DNA from: Escherichia coli 042
Lineage (GTDB): Bacteria; Pseudomonadota; Gammaproteobacteria; Enterobacterales; Enterobacteriaceae
Length of the DNA stretch: 64,000 nt
NCBI RefSeq assembly: GCF_000027125.1
Contig: NC_017627.1
Strand: one strand, 5' to 3'
Part shown: piece by piece, positions 34,010 through 51,394 of the stretch
How positions within the stretch are numbered: the stretch's first letter is position 1
How the letters are laid out: every line of letters starts with the position of its first letter
Notes under the pieces: model-generated
The model's database searches: none
The model's input: the letters and a program-made list of their open reading frames with translations, nothing else
Told to the model about the DNA's origin: nothing
Program-made: the position numbers and the translations under genes

Positions 34010-34430
34010 ATGTATACCTCTTTATTTTCTTATCGAATCAAATTTATTTCACATATAAAAAAATGACAATTCATCGATGAATCGAATCGTGACGCAAGTT
34101 ACGAAAATTACGATTCATGCAGCAAATCACATCACGAATTGAATCTAGAGTCAATTCGCTTTAACTCGTTGTTTTATTATTACTGATTCATCTATGAGTT
34201 GCGTTAAATTCATTGGTGAATCATATGCGATTCACCAATGAATCCTTTTTATAATGTAAAATAAATTAAAATACATTATTTAAAACATAAGTTAATGATT
34301 CAAATAGCAAATCAGCAAAAACTTGTTTTTGCGTGGGGTGTGGTGCTTTTGGTGGTGAGAACCACCAACCTGTTGAGCCTTTTTGTGGAGTGGGTTAAAT
34401 TATTTACGGATAAAGTCACCAGAGGTGGAA
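34010..34430 (+). promoter_or_regulatory. oriT: oriT (origin of transfer); nic site predicted between 34341 and 34342 on the plus strand
   Basis: F-type nic motif GTGGGGTGT/GGTGCTTTT at 34333-34350 between traM and orf169; AT-rich region 34020-34300. Confidence 0.85.
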
Positions 34431-34942: not shown

Positions 34943-35200
34943 TATTGTATACATTGTCAAATACCGGTTATGCCGCGACAGCGGCATGGAAGGCCACACA
35001 CAAAAATATCATATGAGTGATAATGCTGACTGGCCGAAGCCCCGCAAAGCGGGACCCCATCTTATATATATCCGGTAACTGCACAGCCTCCTGCCAGACC
35101 ATTTTTCGCGGGCACAATATTTACAGACTACCGAAAAGCCAGTTGATGAAATTGAGGCATATCAGACGACACAGCAATGCCGCAGGATGATAATATAAGT

Positions 35201-35228
35201 AAAGCCCCGAAAAATTTTTCGGGGCTTT
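35201..35228. terminator. Bidirectional hairpin terminator between convergent orf169 and the yubP-like gene
   Basis: aaagccccgaaaaatttttcggggcttt. Confidence 0.5.
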
Positions 35229-35238
35229 ACTTATATTA

Positions 35239-36060
35239 TCATGACTTCCACTCCCTGAACTGTTCGGCAATCATCCATAATGCTTTGTTGATTCGGATAT
35301 CACCGTCAATGCCTGTAATGGCTCTTGTTCTGGTATTTTTACCGGAGGCACTTCGCCCCGATAATCCACCTTTTATCATATTCTCCTGAACCCGCTGCCA
35401 AGTTGTCCAGAGATCGTTCTGTTTATCCTCCCAACGGCGGGGAGTAATTATTTGTTCTGGCGTCACTGGCGTTTTATTTTCATCTTCGTACCTAGCCATC
35501 AATGCAGCTCTGCCAAATAAATGTTGTTCGTCACTGTTAAGATGTATCTCTTTCATTGTCTCCATATTTTCAGTGACTTTATCAAAGACACCGAGCACTT
35601 CATACGCTCCCTCAATAACCTGCCCGACAATATCACCTTTATGTGGAACGCGGATTTCGCCAAAATTATTCCCACACACCAGGCCATTTGTGCAGACAAA
35701 ACGAAAAATTCCTGGGATCATCTGATAACTGGATGAACCATCATGTGAATTAAGCAGGATAATTTCAGGAACTTCTTTCCCGTTAATATGCCCTTCCCTG
35801 CGAAGACGTAACATATGTTTACTGTATTCGCGGCGTCCCAAATCACGAACCCGACTCTGACAGGCAAAGAACGGCTGGAAACCTTCATCACGTAACTTAT
35901 TGATGATATTGATGGTTGGGATATATGTATAACGCTCACTCCGGGATTCATGTTTATCACCAGAAAAGACAGATGGAACAAACTGCATTAATTCGTCATC
36001 CGTTAACGGGCGCTCACGGCGAATAGAATTATATCGACCAAAACGGGAAGCTAATCGCAT
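35239..36060 (-). CDS. Conserved leading-region protein (YubP-like, 273 aa)
   Basis: 273 aa ORF next to orf169; family assignment from memory of F leading-region gene order. Confidence 0.7.
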   Translation of the reverse strand: MRLASRFGRYNSIRRERPLTDDELMQFVPSVFSGDKHESRSERYTYIPTINIINKLRDEGFQPFFACQSRVRDLGRREYSKHMLRLRREGHINGKEVPEIILLNSHDGSSSYQMIPGIFRFVCTNGLVCGNNFGEIRVPHKGDIVGQVIEGAYEVLGVFDKVTENMETMKEIHLNSDEQHLFGRAALMARYEDENKTPVTPEQIITPRRWEDKQNDLWTTWQRVQENMIKGGLSGRSASGKNTRTRAITGIDGDIRINKALWMIAEQFREWKS

Positions 36061-36467: not shown

Positions 36468-36483
36468 AATTCCTCCTGTATCT

Positions 36484-36944
36484 GATGTTTTCAGCCCCCA
36501 TCATCTGTTGAGTTTCGGGAGCCGCGGTTTTGACGTTTTGCGGGGACCTGCCTTTTGTTCCCTCCGGTATTCACCATCACCTGTTTGAGAACCTTCGCCG
36601 CAAGGGGCATCACTGCCACGGCCTGACGCACCTGTCCTGGGCAGAACGCAAAATTTTTTACCGGGTTTTAGGTAAAAAATTTTGTGGTCTGTTCATTTAC
36701 CCTGGACAGTCAGTGCGGCAGGTTGTGGCTGTATCAGCCCCCGGCGACAGGGGCTTAAACAGGTGAATGGCACCGGACACAACAACGGGCAGGGACCCGC
36801 CGCAACGACGTGAAGCGCGGTTTGCGAAACGGCGTTGCGCCTTACATCCCGGCGGCCTTTTGCCGGGATGCCAGGAGCGCAGGCCACGGCGCGACAGAGG
36901 CGGCGCGACCGGAACGGTCGCTGCAAGCCCGGGGTTTCGCGTCA
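36484..36944. repeat. Frpo-like repeat A (putative single-stranded DNA promoter element)
   Basis: Near-identical to 42053-42506 and 45451-45900; internal palindromes such as aaaattttttaccgggttttaggtaaaaaatttt. Confidence 0.7.
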
Positions 36945-37316
36945 GGGATGGAAGCCCGCCAGGGGGACGCCCGGAAAAGACACTGCCAGGAGAACAACAA
37001 AACAGACAATAATCAGGGCAGCAGTAATCAGAGTCAGAACAGGAGGAAAAAGAGAATAATCAAAGGGAAGGTGATGTGATTTCTGACAGGTCATAAACAG
37101 AGAAGGCGGGGGAAAAGAACGGGCGCCGCAGGCGCGCGTTCTTCCCCGTTCCCGGAGGGAAACGGCCTTCCTGGCAGTCTGGTTGTTCATGCCCGCACAA
37201 TGCCAGCAAGGAGAAAGGGGCCACCGGCGAACCAGCAGCCCCTTTATAAAGGCGCTTCAGTGCAGTCAGACCAGCATCATCCCTGAAAAGGCGGGCCTGC
37301 GCCCGCCTCCAGGTTG

Positions 37317-37478
37317 CTACTTACCGCCGGATTCGTAAGCCATTGTTGCCGTAACTTCCCTGTATCCGTCCTTCAGCCGGACTTCGCACAGACGATTCCG
37401 GGTCAGGAATGTGAATATCAACAACGTGCAGCACACGATTAATACGCACCAGATAAGGGCGTTTCCCGGTAGTTTCAT
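37317..37478 (-). CDS. hok: Hok/Gef-family membrane toxin (flmA/hok-like)
   Basis: 53 aa [53 protein letters not shown] with AGGAGGAG SD; not in the supplied ORF track because it is nested in the mok-like frame. Confidence 0.85.
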
Positions 37479-37536
37479 GGTTTACTCCTCCTTGCAATTT
37501 GCACGGTAAGAGGCCATACTGACGTGGACTAGACAT
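37321..37536 (-). CDS. mok: Mok-like overlapping reading frame
   Basis: 71-aa ORF overlapping hok in another frame. Confidence 0.45.
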
Positions 37537-37560
37537 GCAGAGGCCTCGTGGGTTAATGAA
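37485..37560 (+). ncRNA. sok: Sok-like antisense RNA (approximate)
   Basis: Plus-strand promoter-like ttgcaa-17 bp-catact opposite the mok start; ends not determined. Confidence 0.3.
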
Positions 37561-37685
37561 AAATTAACTACGGGGCTTTTGTCCTTCTGCCACACGACAC
37601 GGTAACAAACCACCTTCACGTCATGAGGCAGAAAGCCTCAAGCGCCGGGCACATCATAGCCCATATACCTGCGCACTGACCACAC

Positions 37686-42035: not shown

Positions 42036-42052
42036 GATGTGTCTCCTTCTGT

Positions 42053-42690
42053 TGATGTTTTCAGCCCCCATCATCTGTTGAGTTTCGGGAGCCGCGGTTT
42101 TGACGTTTTGCGGGGACCTGCCTTTTGTTCCCTCCGGTATTCACCATCACCTGTTTGAGAACCTTCGCCGCAAGGGGCATCACTGCCACGGCCTGACGCA
42201 CCTGTCCTGGGCAGAACGCAAAATTTTTTACCGGGTTTTGGGTAAAAAATTTTGTGGGCTGTTCATTTACCCTGGACAGTCAGTGCGGCAGGTTGTGGCT
42301 GTATCAGCCCCCGGCGACAGGGGCTTAAACAGGTGAATGGCACCGGACAGAACAACGGGCAGGGACCCGCCGCAACGACGTGAAGCGCGGTTTGCGAAAC
42401 GGCGTTGCGCCTTACATCCTGGCGGCCTTTTGCCGGGATGCCGGGAGCGCAGGCCACGGCGCGACAGAGGCGGCGCGACCGGAACGGTCGCTGCAAGCCC
42501 GGGGTTTTCACGCATCGGACCGTAGCGACAGCCCGAAACCGCGCCAGCGGGTTCGGCGGAGACTGGCGGGTGCGCCAGCAGCTGCCTGTCGGAGTCGGGC
42601 CTGACGACCGGATGCCGCCAGGCAGCCGGGAGCCGAAGGTGCGCCCGGCAGACAGGACAACACTGCAGTAGTCAGAATCAGAGCGGCAGG
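42053..42690. repeat. Frpo-like repeat B, immediately upstream of ssb
   Basis: Near-identical to repeat A over about 450 bp and to repeat C over about 600 bp. Confidence 0.7.
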
Positions 42691-42700
42691 AAAAAGAAGA

Positions 42701-44984: not shown

Positions 44985-45215
44985 TCAGTTAAAAGCGCGT
45001 TTCAGTTCGAGTGTGCGGAGCACCTGCCCGAAAGCCGTATTTTTCATGGCGGGGATGTGTACACCACGTCCCCGGTGAAAACTCCGGGCAATGTGTCGCC
45101 CGAAGGCTTTCAGCACGGGGTCAATTTCCGGCGCGGGGATGTCTTCGCGTCTGAAACGGGGATGACGGCGGGGCTTTACAGCCGCTGCGGAAGGTGAAAC
45201 AATACTTACTGTCAT
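44985..45215 (-). CDS. Small hypothetical protein (76 aa)
   Basis: First ORF downstream of Frpo-like repeat C. Confidence 0.3.
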   Translation of the reverse strand: MTVSIVSPSAAAVKPRRHPRFRREDIPAPEIDPVLKAFGRHIARSFHRGRGVHIPAMKNTAFGQVLRTLELKRAFN

Positions 45216-45450
45216 AAATGCATCCTTATGACTGTTGACTGGAGCCGCAAAAACTGTTCGTGCAGTCTCTGCAGCATGGATTAAGCAGGTTCCTGACCTG
45301 CTTTTTTCATATCTGCATCTGACGCTTTCCGGTGTTTTCCTCCTTCTGTTCCTGCGTTCTCATTACCTGCCAGCCGGATGACTGACAGAACACATAAATG
45401 CGTATTGCCGGAGCCTGAAATAAATCCTGATTTTTAAAGAACATCACCCG

Positions 45451-46060
45451 TTGAGTTTCGGGAGCCGCGGTTTTGACGTTTCGCGGGAACCTGCTGCTGT
45501 ATTCCCTGTGGTATGAACTTCACCCGTTTGAGAACCTTCGCCGCAAGGGGCATCACTGCCACGGCCTGACGCACCTGTCCTGGGCAGAACGCAAAATTTT
45601 TTACCGGGTTTTGGGTAAAAATTTTTGTGGGTTGTTCATTTACCCTGGACAGTCAGTGCGGCAGGTTGTGGCTGTATCAGCCCCCGGCGACAGGGACTCA
45701 TACGGGTGTGTGGCACCCGGCAGGCAATGAGCAGGGGCCCGCTGCAACGACGAAGAGCGCGTGCGCGAAACGGCGTTGCGCCTTACATTCCGGCGGCCTT
45801 TTGCCGGGATGCCGGGAGCGCAGGCCACGGCGCGACAGAGGCGGCGCGACCGGAACGGTCGCTGCAAGCCGGGGGTTTTCACGCATCGGACCGTAGCGAC
45901 AGCCCGAAACCGCGCCAGCGGGTTCGGCGGAGACTGGCGGGTGCGCCAGCAGCTGCCTGTCGGAGTCGGGCCTGACGACCGGATGCCGCCAGGCAGCCGG
46001 GAGCCGAAGGTGCGTCCGGCAGACAGAACAACACTGCAGTAGTCAGAATCAGAGCAGCAG
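45451..46060. repeat. Frpo-like repeat C
   Basis: Shares about 600 bp with repeat B including the tail ...cactgcagtagtcagaatcagag. Confidence 0.7.
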
Positions 46061-46247
46061 ATAAAGGAACAACAACATCAGGAACAGTTCCATAACATAA
46101 GAAAGAAACACTCCTGAGTCAGACACATCACAGACGGGAAGGGTAACGGGCGACGCGCCAGCGTGGCCCGCTTCCCTTCCGGCAGGCGTCAGCCTGCCAG
46201 GGGTTTTCGCGCGGGCTGACAGGCGGCCTCCACCGCCTGCCCCTGTA

Positions 46248-46904: not shown

Positions 46905-47330
46905 TCAGTCCAGCGCCGCATAAATCGCGTTACATTCGGGGTGAAATTCGATGTGGCTCCACAACTGCGCATCGCGCATCCTGTACAGGTGAGTCAGCCC
47001 TGCGCTACCGCTGTCGTGGTACAGCCACAACTGGCGGTTAATCACAAGGGAGGTCAGGATGATGCCTGCGGCATCAGCACTCACGGTACGGTCAAACCAG
47101 TTTTCACCGTTAACCAGATGAAAACGGTCGCCATCCGGCATCATGTAACCGCCACCGTCCGGCAGGCGGATGAAGTGCCAGAATCCGCCTTCATATTCCG
47201 GCATCATTTTTTTCGCCAGCGCGTACACAGATGCCTCGGCATACAGAAAATCCAGGCCAAACAGGTAAGGCAGAAAGGAGAGACGGTCGCACTCTTCAAC
47301 ATTCAGAGTGACAGGTTTCGCATATTGCAT
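46905..47330 (-). CDS. klcA: KlcA/ArdB-family anti-restriction protein
   Basis: 141 aa [25 protein letters not shown]...[21 protein letters not shown] resembling KlcA/ArdB. Confidence 0.8.
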
Positions 47331-47366
47331 GATGTTTTCCTCCGTTGTTCACATATTCCGCGACAC

Positions 47367-47600
47367 CGGGCGGTGCCGTGCCTCCATCTTTGCCGGGCCT
47401 GCAGGGTTGCAAGGGCGCAAGGGAAGCCGCAGCCTGACGCACACGGCTGGCGGGAGTTGGAGGGTGAGACCGCGAAATCTGAGCGGGTGAACGACCGGAA
47501 AATCACGGCAGACGGGAAGGAGGGACCGGGTGACCGCAGCGGTTCACCTTACCTTGCAACCCGCCCGCAGAAGCCCGGCTACGATGGAGGCACGGCACAG
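47367..47600. promoter_or_regulatory. Long imperfect inverted repeat (about 230-nt hairpin) upstream of klcA; candidate ssDNA promoter distinct from the Frpo-like repeats
   Basis: Arms 47367-47415 and 47548-47600 are reverse complements (ccgtgcctccatc / gatggaggcacgg; gggttgcaagg / ccttgcaaccc). Confidence 0.45.
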
Positions 47601-47745
47601 CCCGCACACGACGCTGAGGCCACATAACTGAAAACCCACAAGGCCATGCCCCGCATGGCCGGGTAAAGCGGAGCCTGCGGCGACATCCTTTTGCTCTTTC
47701 CGGGGACCGGCTGGAAAAGGCGGAGATTTTTCCCCGCCAGCGTCA

Positions 47746-49230: not shown

Positions 49231-49914
49231 TTACGCAGCCTCCGGTTCAAACCAGTTATCATTCGCGGCCCCCTGCTGCATGGCCCGTTGCACGGCGGCC
49301 AGTCGTTGCTGTCCGGCACGGTGATACTGTTCAAGCAGCTCGATACCGATATACCGGCGTCCGGACTGAAGGGCGGCGACGCAGGTTGAGCCGCTGCCTG
49401 CAAACGGGTCCAGCACAATCGCGTTCGGGTGTGTGAAGCTCTCAATCAGCGGTTGCAGGCTGGTAACGGGCTTTTCAGTCGGGTGATGACGATTGCCTGA
49501 ATATTTCCAGCCCAGCACGTCGGGCAATGGCTTCTGAGGCAGCGCCGGACGTCCTTTTGCCAGGATGTAGGCGCATTCGTGGCGATAGCCCACATATGCG
49601 GCCTTCGATGTGTAGGTTTTGGTAAACACCAGGTGGCCAACCACGCTGAATCCCGCATTTTTCCAGGCGGCCATAAAGCGATCGACGCGGTTCCAGCCAT
49701 AGAAGCTCACCATTAACGCGTCTTTTTTGAGTACGCGGTACATTTCATTACAGGCTGGTTGCAGCCATTCATCGGTTTTATCGCCGGCGATGGTGCGCCC
49801 GGAACGGTCACGGAAACCGACGAGATACGGCGGGTCGGTGAGGATGAAATCGACAGCATTGCCCGGAAACGTGGCCATAACACGCACGCAGTCACCCAGG
49901 ATAAAACGGGACAT
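49231..49914 (-). CDS. Orphan DNA adenine methyltransferase-like protein (beta-class amino-MTase motif order)
   Basis: 227 aa; DPPY motif (ILTDPPYLVGF) N-terminal and FxGxG-type DPFAGSGST C-terminal; no cognate endonuclease nearby. Confidence 0.85.
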   Translation of the reverse strand: MSRFILGDCVRVMATFPGNAVDFILTDPPYLVGFRDRSGRTIAGDKTDEWLQPACNEMYRVLKKDALMVSFYGWNRVDRFMAAWKNAGFSVVGHLVFTKTYTSKAAYVGYRHECAYILAKGRPALPQKPLPDVLGWKYSGNRHHPTEKPVTSLQPLIESFTHPNAIVLDPFAGSGSTCVAALQSGRRYIGIELLEQYHRAGQQRLAAVQRAMQQGAANDNWFEPEAA

Positions 49915-50249
49915 AACAGCACTCCTTCTCTTACAGAGGGCACCGGGAGGGCACCCCTGTGGTGCCCGTTCCCCGCTGCCTGTGGGCTGTTCACCGCGTC
50001 CGGTAACGGGTCAGGCCGACCGTGGAATACCGCAGCCGTCGTCTTTTTGACGGCAAGGCTATGCCGCGAAAGCGGCTTGAAGGGCGTTCATCAGAAAAGG
50101 GCTCCCGGCTGGCGTACACTGTCACCAACGCCAGCCGGGAGCGGTAAAAGCGCCCGTCCCGTGCCCGGCCGGACGCGGGACACTGACCACAGGCAGCGTT
50201 CCTGCCGCGCCGCGTCAGCCGGCGCAGTAAAAAGAGGAGCCCGGCGACA

Positions 50250-50431
50250 TCTTTTGTCACCCGCCAAACAAAACCCAAAAACAACCCACACCCAACCCAA
50301 TAAAACACCAAAACAAGACAAACAATCATTGATTGATGGTTAAAATGGGGTAAACTTGACAAATAAACCCACTTAAAACCCAAAACATACCCAAATACAC
50401 ACCAAAAAAAACACCATAAGGAGTTTTATAA
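50250..50431 (+). promoter_or_regulatory. parC: parC-like centromere/promoter region upstream of parM
   Basis: A/C-rich repeated motifs (aaaccc, acccaa, aaaaca) upstream of the parM RBS. Confidence 0.55.
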
Positions 50432-51394
50432 ATGTTGGTATTCATTGATGACGGTTCAACAAACATCAAACTACAGTGGCAGGAAAGCGACGGAACAATT
50501 AAACAGCACATTAGCCCGAACAGCTTCAAACGCGAGTGGGCAGTCTCTTTTGGTGATAAAAAGGTCTTTAACTACACACTGAACGGCGAACAGTATTCAT
50601 TTGATCCAATCAGCCCGGATGCTGTAGTCACAACCAATATCGCATGGCAATACAGCGACGTTAATGTCGTTGCGGTGCATCACGCCTTACTGACCAGTGG
50701 TCTGCCGGTAAGCGAAGTGGATATTGTTTGCACACTTCCTCTGACAGAGTATTACGACAGGAATAACCAACCCAATACGGAAAATATTGAGCGTAAGAAA
50801 GCAAACTTCCGGAAAAAAATTATATTAAATGGTGGGGATACATTCACAATAAAAGATGTAAAAGTCATGCCTGAATCTATACCAGCAGGTTATGAAGCTC
50901 TACAAGAACTGGATGAGTTAGATTCTTTATTAATTATAGACCTCGGGGGCACCACATTAGATATTTCTCAGGTAATGGGGAAATTATCAGGGATCAGTAA
51001 AATATACGGAGACTCATCTCTTGGTGTATCTCTGGTCACATCTGCAGTAAAAGATGCACTTTCTCTTGCGAGAACAAAAGGAAGTAGCTATCTTGCTGAC
51101 GATATAATTATTCACAGAAAAGACAACAACTATCTGAAGCAACGAATTAATGATGAGAACAAAATATCAATAGTCACCGAAGCAATGAATGAAGCACTTC
51201 GTAAACTTGAGCAACGTGTATTAAATACGCTCAATGAATTTTCTGGTTATACGCATGTTATGGTTATAGGCGGTGGCGCAGAATTAATATGCGATGCAGT
51301 AAAAAAACACACACAGATTCGTGATGAACGTTTTTTCAAAACCAATAACTCTCAATATGATTTAGTTAACGGTATGTATCTCATAGGTAATTAA
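50432..51394 (+). CDS. parM: ParM (StbA) actin-like partition ATPase
   Basis: 320 aa [32 protein letters not shown]..., essentially R1 ParM. Confidence 0.97.

Follow-up and report, generated by a model that had tools for sequence, protein, structure and literature searches.

What does a perfect hairpin do when it lies between a DNA methylase gene and the parC locus of a plasmid, where it could end transcription, shape a messenger RNA or act in single-stranded DNA (ssDNA)? We addressed this question in Escherichia coli 042, in a window of 64,000 nucleotides (the whole stretch of DNA analysed, from contig NC_017627.1, to which all coordinates refer). Our answer, which we hold with good confidence, is that the hairpin is a side branch of a class 3 ssDNA promoter (ssp3) driving the operon of an M.EcoGIX-family methylase, and that its perfect stem arose from one quasi-palindrome mutation. 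The first-pass annotation had described a perfect 14-bp stem at 50100-50141. The perfect repeat exists, and it is actually 15 bp long and shifted one base to the right, 50101-50115 (GCTCCCGGCTGGCGT) being complementary at 15 of 15 positions to 50128-50142 (ACGCCAGCCGGGAGC). Its placement between the methyltransferase and parC was correct, with the methylase coding sequence on the left and the parC repeats and parM on the right, and the minus-strand tail that it had read after the stem is present as CCTTTTCT (the complement of 50093-50100). The features of the immediate surroundings are as follows.

50101 to 50142, plus strand: the hairpin under study, with perfect 15-bp arms and a 12-nt loop, ACACTGTCACCA
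49231 to 49914, minus strand: DNA methylase gene (PF01555), the first gene downstream of the module described below
50432 to 51394, plus strand: parM, parC/parM beginning at ~50260

The methylase Shine-Dalgarno sequence, AAGGAG, is the complement of 49922-49927. Fold prediction, proposed as a check by the first-pass annotation, gave -22.3 kcal/mol for the 76 nt around the hairpin as ssDNA, compared with -10.6 +/- 2.35 kcal/mol for shuffled sequences (z -5, with 0 of 200 shuffles equally good). Among 200 simulated 64-kb sequences that preserved the dinucleotide transitions, only 2 contained a perfect inverted repeat with arms of 14 bp or more and a loop of 3-60 nt. The hairpin is not attributable to chance. 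An Rfam search returned no family matching 49.9-50.3 kb at E <= 1.

The strand on which such a structure could act depends on the direction of conjugative transfer. The window is an F-like plasmid, in which the traJ 5' UTR and FinP were located at 33.4 kb, followed by the origin of transfer.

34335 to 34347, plus strand: oriT nick-site sequence GGGGTGT/GGTGCT, by sequence match

In F-type oriT, the strand that carries the nick sequence is the transferred strand. As the nick sequence lies here on the plus strand, this strand is the one transferred, and it moves into the recipient in the 5' to 3' direction, the sequence at 34.3 kb ahead of that at 50 kb. Measured from the nick, the module that contains the hairpin is ~15.8 kb into the leading region. 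Genes of this region are encoded on the minus strand, and the incoming plus strand is thus their template; the one exception is an ORF adjoining oriT (from ~34434, plus strand), which we read as a homolog of F orf169. The longest inverted repeat of the whole window is also in this part of the plasmid, ~0.9 kb from oriT, where the arms of a perfect, spacerless palindrome at 35187-35242 (ATGATAATATAAGTAAAGCCCCGAAAAA / TTTTTCGGGGCTTTACTTATATTATCAT) pair over 28 bp.

The hairpin does not stand alone on the transferred strand, as it is enclosed in a much larger fold that is itself part of a portable module.

49937 to 50257, plus strand: the whole portable module, ~320 nt, present also in F, in pESBL and in more than 5000 plasmids of PLSDB
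49974 to 50198, plus strand: the large transferred-strand stem-loop, ~225 nt, the unit that is retained in relatives of as little as ~75% identity

The module ends 22 nt short of the methylase start codon, and at the other end its homology with F and pESBL stops at ~50257, which is the parC start in the window. As ssDNA, plus-strand 49915-50260 (346 nt) folds at -106.1 kcal/mol, compared with -72.5 +/- 4.2 kcal/mol for shuffled sequences (z -8), and a long basal stem between 49974-50004 and 50168-50198 encloses the hairpin. That plus-strand 49974-50198 folds into this large stem-loop during conjugation is strongly supported. We also applied the search threshold of Wen et al. (energy below -75 kcal/mol for 300-nt ssDNA segments, DNA parameters) to 672 segments of the transferred strand between 34.0 and 50.8 kb. 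The lowest energy among them, -99.5 kcal/mol, was that of the segment starting at 49925, in the module region. The other stretches that passed -75 kcal/mol were two Frpo copies, two regions at 45.4-46.1 kb and one at 47.3-47.7 kb. The Frpo-type (class 1) copies are near-identical (~36.49-36.93 kb and ~42.06-42.50 kb, in the stretches 36475-36950 and 42050-42700), form long stem-loops (-145 kcal/mol for 461 nt) and have between them a match to the sok antitoxin RNA (37476-37647). The stretch at 47325-47675 is upstream of an antirestriction (KlcA/ArdB-like) gene (46905-47330) and may be a class 2 promoter, and the one at 45425-46075 lies near, without overlapping, an Rfam match to the AS-pc01 antisense RNA (45210-45306). 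When the module was compared with the window by blastn, it matched only itself, and neither Frpo copy (36.5 and 42.1 kb) was hit.

In a three-way alignment, the ~340 nt from the methylase start to ~50257 share ~95% identity with the sequences that precede the methylase gene in F and M.EcoGIX in pESBL-EA11, and the methylase protein (N6_N4_Mtase) is 91% identical to M.EcoGIX of pESBL. According to Wen et al. (NAR 2025, PMC12672017), six ssDNA promoters were found in pESBL, of which the one upstream of M.EcoGIX forms its own class 3. The same authors report that the class 3 start was mapped by 5' RACE, with 5' RACE and RNA-seq placing transcription initiation in early transconjugants, and that classes 2 and 3 are conserved in F, where a 2026 preprint names the class 3 element ssp3 (bioRxiv 10.64898/2026.01.09.698686). 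The region in the window is immediately upstream of an M.EcoGIX-family methylase in the leading region, is similar in sequence to the pESBL and F elements, and folds on the strand that is both the transferred strand and the template of the downstream gene. Its 300-nt ssDNA energy of -99.5 kcal/mol is below the -75 kcal/mol cut-off, so that the module passes the detection threshold of Wen et al., and it shares with class 3 of pESBL (IncI1; PMC12672017) the position directly upstream of an orthologous methylase, the strand and the large ssDNA fold. With the class 3 of Wen et al. as reference, the module and methylase identities make the region, as judged from sequence, an orthologue of an element already published (December 2025), not a free-standing hairpin. 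One of the two roles that the first-pass annotation had offered, part of another ssDNA-structured element, is thereby borne out, as the hairpin branches from a ~225-nt stem-loop homologous to the published class 3 promoter. The window differs from pESBL and F in its upstream neighbor, which is parC/parM here and a DUF1281 gene with a terminator-like hairpin there. That hairpin, noticed on visual inspection next to the upstream end of the module in both plasmids (GACGGGCGG-GCAA-CCGCCCGT followed by TTCTTTTCC), was not relied on, the terminator scan having made no call.

More distant relatives define which parts of the module are conserved. Scanning genomes with the methylase protein gave 40 loci, and at 10 of them the region upstream of the methylase is 74-81% identical to the module. 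These ten divergent loci, from Raoultella, Enterobacter, Citrobacter, Erwinia, Hafnia, Edwardsiella and Entomohabitans, are homologous to it only over 49931-50196, that is, the big stem-loop and the 5' UTR. An alignment of 13 sequences, down to 75% identity, and its RNAalifold consensus led to the following elements.

49974-85 / 50187-98, plus strand: basal helix 1, compensatory changes at four pairs
49994-50003 / 50169-78, plus strand: helix 2, compensatory changes at two pairs
49945 to 49973, plus strand: small hairpin in which four pairs covary, within the predicted 5' UTR just downstream of the putative start at ~49981
50073 to 50080, plus strand: invariant CGGCTTGA, paired in the consensus with 50011-50018
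50082 to 50155, plus strand: side-branch domain, with closing stem GGGCG 50082-86 / CGCCC 50151-55 and an asymmetric purine-rich bubble
50179 to 50184, plus strand: candidate -10 mimic GACACT on the right arm, CACACT in relatives

The consensus contains a three-way junction, the arms of which are 50011-18/50073-80, 50006-10/50158-62 and the GGGCG/CGCCC stem, and it is this third arm that bears the hairpin. In the branch bubble, the left side (50087-50100) is variable in sequence and length (11-14 nt), and the right side is GGTAAAAG (50143-50150). TAAAAG (50145-50150), within this bubble, was considered as a -10 box and rejected, as divergent relatives carry GGAAAAGC there. The individual minimum-free-energy folds disagree in the apical domain, and the consensus three-way-junction fold is 15-25 kcal/mol above the predicted minimum of each sequence; the model uses only the helices supported by the comparison. 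The paired columns of the alignment hold 61 G·T against 3 A·C on the plus strand, and the transferred strand folds more stably than its complement in 13 of 13 sequences, which therefore points to selection on the plus-strand fold, not on an mRNA.

We propose that the host sigma-70 RNA polymerase would recognize promoter boxes that form only when the strand is folded. The first two junction arms (50011-18/50073-80 and 50006-10/50158-62) would carry an unbroken template strand and, if they stack, TTGA (50077-80) and CC (50158-59) would form TTGACC, a -35-like box, over the template GGTCAG (50009-14). The candidate -10 box, GACACT, would lie below helix 2 on the right arm with its A and T kept unpaired, and in 13 of 13 aligned sequences A50180 is opposite C49992 and T50184 is opposite T49988. 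In a -10 element, the bases at these A and T positions are the two that sigma-70 flips out. A purine preceded by C sits seven bases beyond GACACT, so the start is predicted opposite ~49981, with a 67-nt 5' UTR that opens with the covarying hairpin. From there, transcription would run leftwards into the methylase gene, and complementary-strand synthesis would abolish the fold and turn the promoter off. The hairpin, as the third junction arm, would be upstream of the -35 box and probably untranscribed. We infer the -35, -10 and +1 assignments from the sequence and the modeled fold, in which the candidate boxes lie 15 nt apart on the template side, a short spacing. A linear scan of both module strands with a sigma-70 PWM gave nothing above background, the best candidate being CAGAAA-17-TACACT with a score of 4.9 against a 99.9th percentile of 5.4; the same scan is uninformative on the Frpo copies as well.

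The Frpo/ssi elements of class 1 (F, ColIb-P9; Masai and Arai 1997; Couturier et al. 2023) resemble this model in that a transferred-strand stem-loop, upstream of leading-region genes, offers promoter boxes to the host polymerase and is active only while single-stranded. However, they share no sequence similarity with class 3, which is much more GC-rich, and consist of one long hairpin, whereas class 3 is branched at a three-way junction and has no clear linear -35/-10 match. At the minus-strand origin of M13/f1, the sigma-70 holoenzyme recognizes a promoter mimic of adjacent or stacked ssDNA hairpins, with bases of the -10 region unpaired. In contrast to the element studied here, that origin yields a short RNA that primes DNA synthesis rather than an mRNA, and the two have no sequence relationship.

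The branch domain is conserved beyond what a passive arm would need, with an invariant GGGCG/CGCCC, a fixed stem length and a conserved motif at its loop, and this conservation suggests that it does more than close a loop.

50115 to 50120, plus strand: -10-like hexamer TACACT, TAAAAT or TAAACT in divergent relatives (TAnAnT)

The hexamer begins at the last stem pair, and its A is the first unpaired base. TAnAnT is kept across every lineage, the remaining loop being variable; TTGAAG, GGGCG and CGCCC are invariant, and the stem has 15 positions in the aligned lineages, with the exception of a one-base gap in L145. It is possible, if rather unlikely, that the branch hairpin is a second RNA polymerase site, a fork-junction mimic that captures the sigma-70 holoenzyme or primes complementary-strand synthesis. 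If the TTGA helix were stacked on GGGCG/CGCCC and the hairpin stem, TTGAAG would stand 18 bp from TAnAnT, with the double-strand/single-strand junction exactly at -12/-11, and the variable length of the left side of the bubble (11-14 nt) is what would be expected if it were looped out. The conservation of TAnAnT in all lineages, the invariance of TTGAAG, GGGCG and CGCCC and the near-fixed stem length all favor such a site, as does the fact that TACACT is the best -10-like hexamer of the module. However, TTGAAG matches the consensus at 4 of 6 positions, the best linear -35 partner of TACACT, CAGAAA with its 17-nt spacer, scores below the 99.9th percentile of background, and the preprint reports no roadblock activity for ssp3 (bioRxiv 10.64898/2026.01.09.698686). 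A geometric argument weighs on the same side: the 12-nt loop cannot give both a non-template -10 and a template to +1, so productive initiation within the branch seems not to be possible. We would tentatively suggest, from the conserved motifs and the modeled stacking, that the branch might be a conserved sigma-70 fork-junction mimic that docks the polymerase beside the productive promoter or starts a primer RNA. If this were true, the perfect-stem allele would be a natural variant with altered polymerase capture.

Within the class 3 promoter, which remains our preferred setting for the hairpin, the perfect stem is the exception. A metagenome scan in which the flanks were fixed and the hairpin left free gave 120 loci. 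In 100 of 103 distinct module copies, stem positions 3, 4 and 6 from the base are mismatched (purine-purine), and in most relatives only the top 9 bp of the stem pair. The common left arm, GCGAC(G/A)GG, compared with GCTCCCGG in the window, leaves tandem G·A/A·G and G·G or A·G mismatches. The identical 86-mer is present in 85 of the 5000 best-matching PLSDB records. The nearest relatives (L010 and L098) have 5 differences from the window in 343 nt, and three of the five are clustered, at 50103 (G>T), 50104 (A>C) and 50106 (G>C), each of them restoring a Watson-Crick pair with the unchanged right arm. One further copy, L107, is also perfect; it has a pESBL-like background, with 14 differences from its nearest neighbor, and its stem position 6 is T:A, matching the A in its own right arm.

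On this comparison, the perfect 15-bp stem is a rare derived allele and not the conserved state. Template switching in a quasi-palindrome characteristically leaves a cluster of substitutions in one arm, every one of which improves complementarity. Each of the clustered changes in the left arm turned a mismatch into the complement of the other arm, and we therefore attribute the perfect stem to a template switch within the quasi-palindrome, in which one templated mutation would have copied the right arm into the left arm. Such a switch seems to have happened at least twice, in the lineage of the window and in that of L107. Quasi-palindrome hotspots in E. coli show the same cluster of one-arm substitutions, each mismatch becoming a Watson-Crick pair; unlike them, the case in the window is a natural polymorphism in a plasmid regulatory element. 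The perfect stem, in place of the 9-bp stem with three mismatches of pESBL and F, approximately doubles the stability of the branch. As ssDNA, the branch domain folds at -25.2 kcal/mol in the window, -16.0 in pESBL, -12.8 in F and -9 to -14 in the divergent relatives, which makes it ~9-12 kcal/mol more stable here than in pESBL and F. The element itself is already known, and the features peculiar to this window are the perfect-stem allele and its origin.

Two readings would move the function of the module from the transferred DNA to a minus-strand transcript. At its right end, the module carries a segment, GTAAAAAGAGGAG (50227-50239), that complements the Shine-Dalgarno region and allows the entire module to close, and the minus strand folds well too (-101.9 kcal/mol); if transcription started to the right of the hairpin, the module could act on methylase expression as an attenuator or an extended, structured 5' UTR. 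We consider such an mRNA leader improbable, because the strand asymmetry described above, in both the wobble counts and the stabilities, favors the plus strand, and because the homology with the divergent loci stops at 50196 and the anti-Shine-Dalgarno-like segment is thus not conserved. In addition, no promoter-like site was found on the minus strand to the right.

The remaining role offered by the first-pass annotation, a terminator for transcription coming from the par side, is not supported. A Rho-independent terminator would consist of the 15-bp GC-rich hairpin followed by CCUUUUCU and would stop minus-strand transcripts before the leading region. The minus-strand RNA hairpin of this allele is indeed very stable (-34.6 kcal/mol, z -5, by the RNA fold prediction that had likewise been proposed as a check), and 5 U are found in the 8 nt after the stem. 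However, the loop is 12 nt long, the U tract is interrupted and the terminator scan makes no call. No minus-strand promoter-like site was found upstream of the hairpin, and parM is transcribed away from it. The RNA hairpin is strong only in this allele: in both pESBL and F it folds at -20.1 kcal/mol, no better than shuffled sequences (z -2.0 and z -0.2, respectively). The stem has three mismatches in 100 of 103 copies, and the wobbles, which are G·T on the plus strand, become A·C in a minus-strand RNA. A terminator is very improbable because of this lack of conservation, because the strand is the wrong one and because there is nothing to terminate.

Finally, the module overlaps an annotated gene.

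49991 to 50284, minus strand: RefSeq "hypothetical protein", 97-103 aa, also annotated at L001:3092-3385, L002:6785-7090 and L004:4395-4706

That a small protein is encoded over the module, the hairpin being incidental coding sequence, is hardly credible even with such ORFs annotated in pChi7122-2, F and pESBL, since a 1-nt indel divides the copies approximately half and half (53 of 103) and the N-terminus lies in unrelated flanking DNA that differs among plasmids, the F and pESBL products aligning over their C-terminal 58 residues only and a Pfam search giving no match; on these grounds, we regard this ORF, which lies in GC-rich structured DNA, as spurious.

The main result is therefore the correct label, as the hairpin belongs to the promoter described in December 2025 and to neither a terminator nor a "hypothetical protein". 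The module governs how fast an incoming IncF/IncI plasmid expresses its methylase, which is single-strand-specific and protects from restriction, and it thus bears on the establishment of resistance plasmids; more than 5000 sequenced plasmids carry it. For those who study these promoters, the comparison provides a covariation-supported three-way-junction architecture with a conserved unpaired A and T in a -10-like box, a conserved -10-like loop, and natural alleles with perfect and mismatched stems that are directly comparable.

The methylase gene and the module are not always found together. For 21 methylase homologues, no class 3 module was detectable within 450 nt upstream (L126, L130-L135, L139-L142, L150, L151, L153-L155 and L158-L162), one of them, in Klebsiella pneumoniae ATCC 13883, being 96% identical in protein; the methylase gene has therefore been paired with other upstream regions in other plasmids. 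Conversely, some plasmids have two module copies ~1.3 kb apart (L033:969-2663, and also L016, L079, L105 and L124), in the order parM, module, DUF1281 gene (308 aa; PF06924 and PF18406), module, methylase, and the second copy is predicted to drive the DUF1281 gene. The window has a single copy and no DUF1281 gene, as recombination between two direct repeats would give.

In six metagenomic contigs (L026:7887-8903, and also L032, L048, L083, L100 and L113), the module is broken within the GCCGC-GAAA-GCGGC hairpin, at the equivalent of window ~50066, by an element that encodes an IS110-family transposase (PF01548 and PF02371). These seemingly truncated copies were considered as evidence for a minimal core right of 50066, a reading that was rejected in view of the insertion. 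In L007 (4228-4385), three 28-nt repeats, GTTCACTGCCGTACAGGCAGCTTAGAAA, with 60-61 nt spacing, abut the module at the equivalent of window ~50002. We take them to be type I-F CRISPR repeats, and in the plasmid the module sequence that starts GGTAACGGGTCAGG has CC before it; this locus looks like a spacer against the leading-region module that seeded a chimeric assembly.
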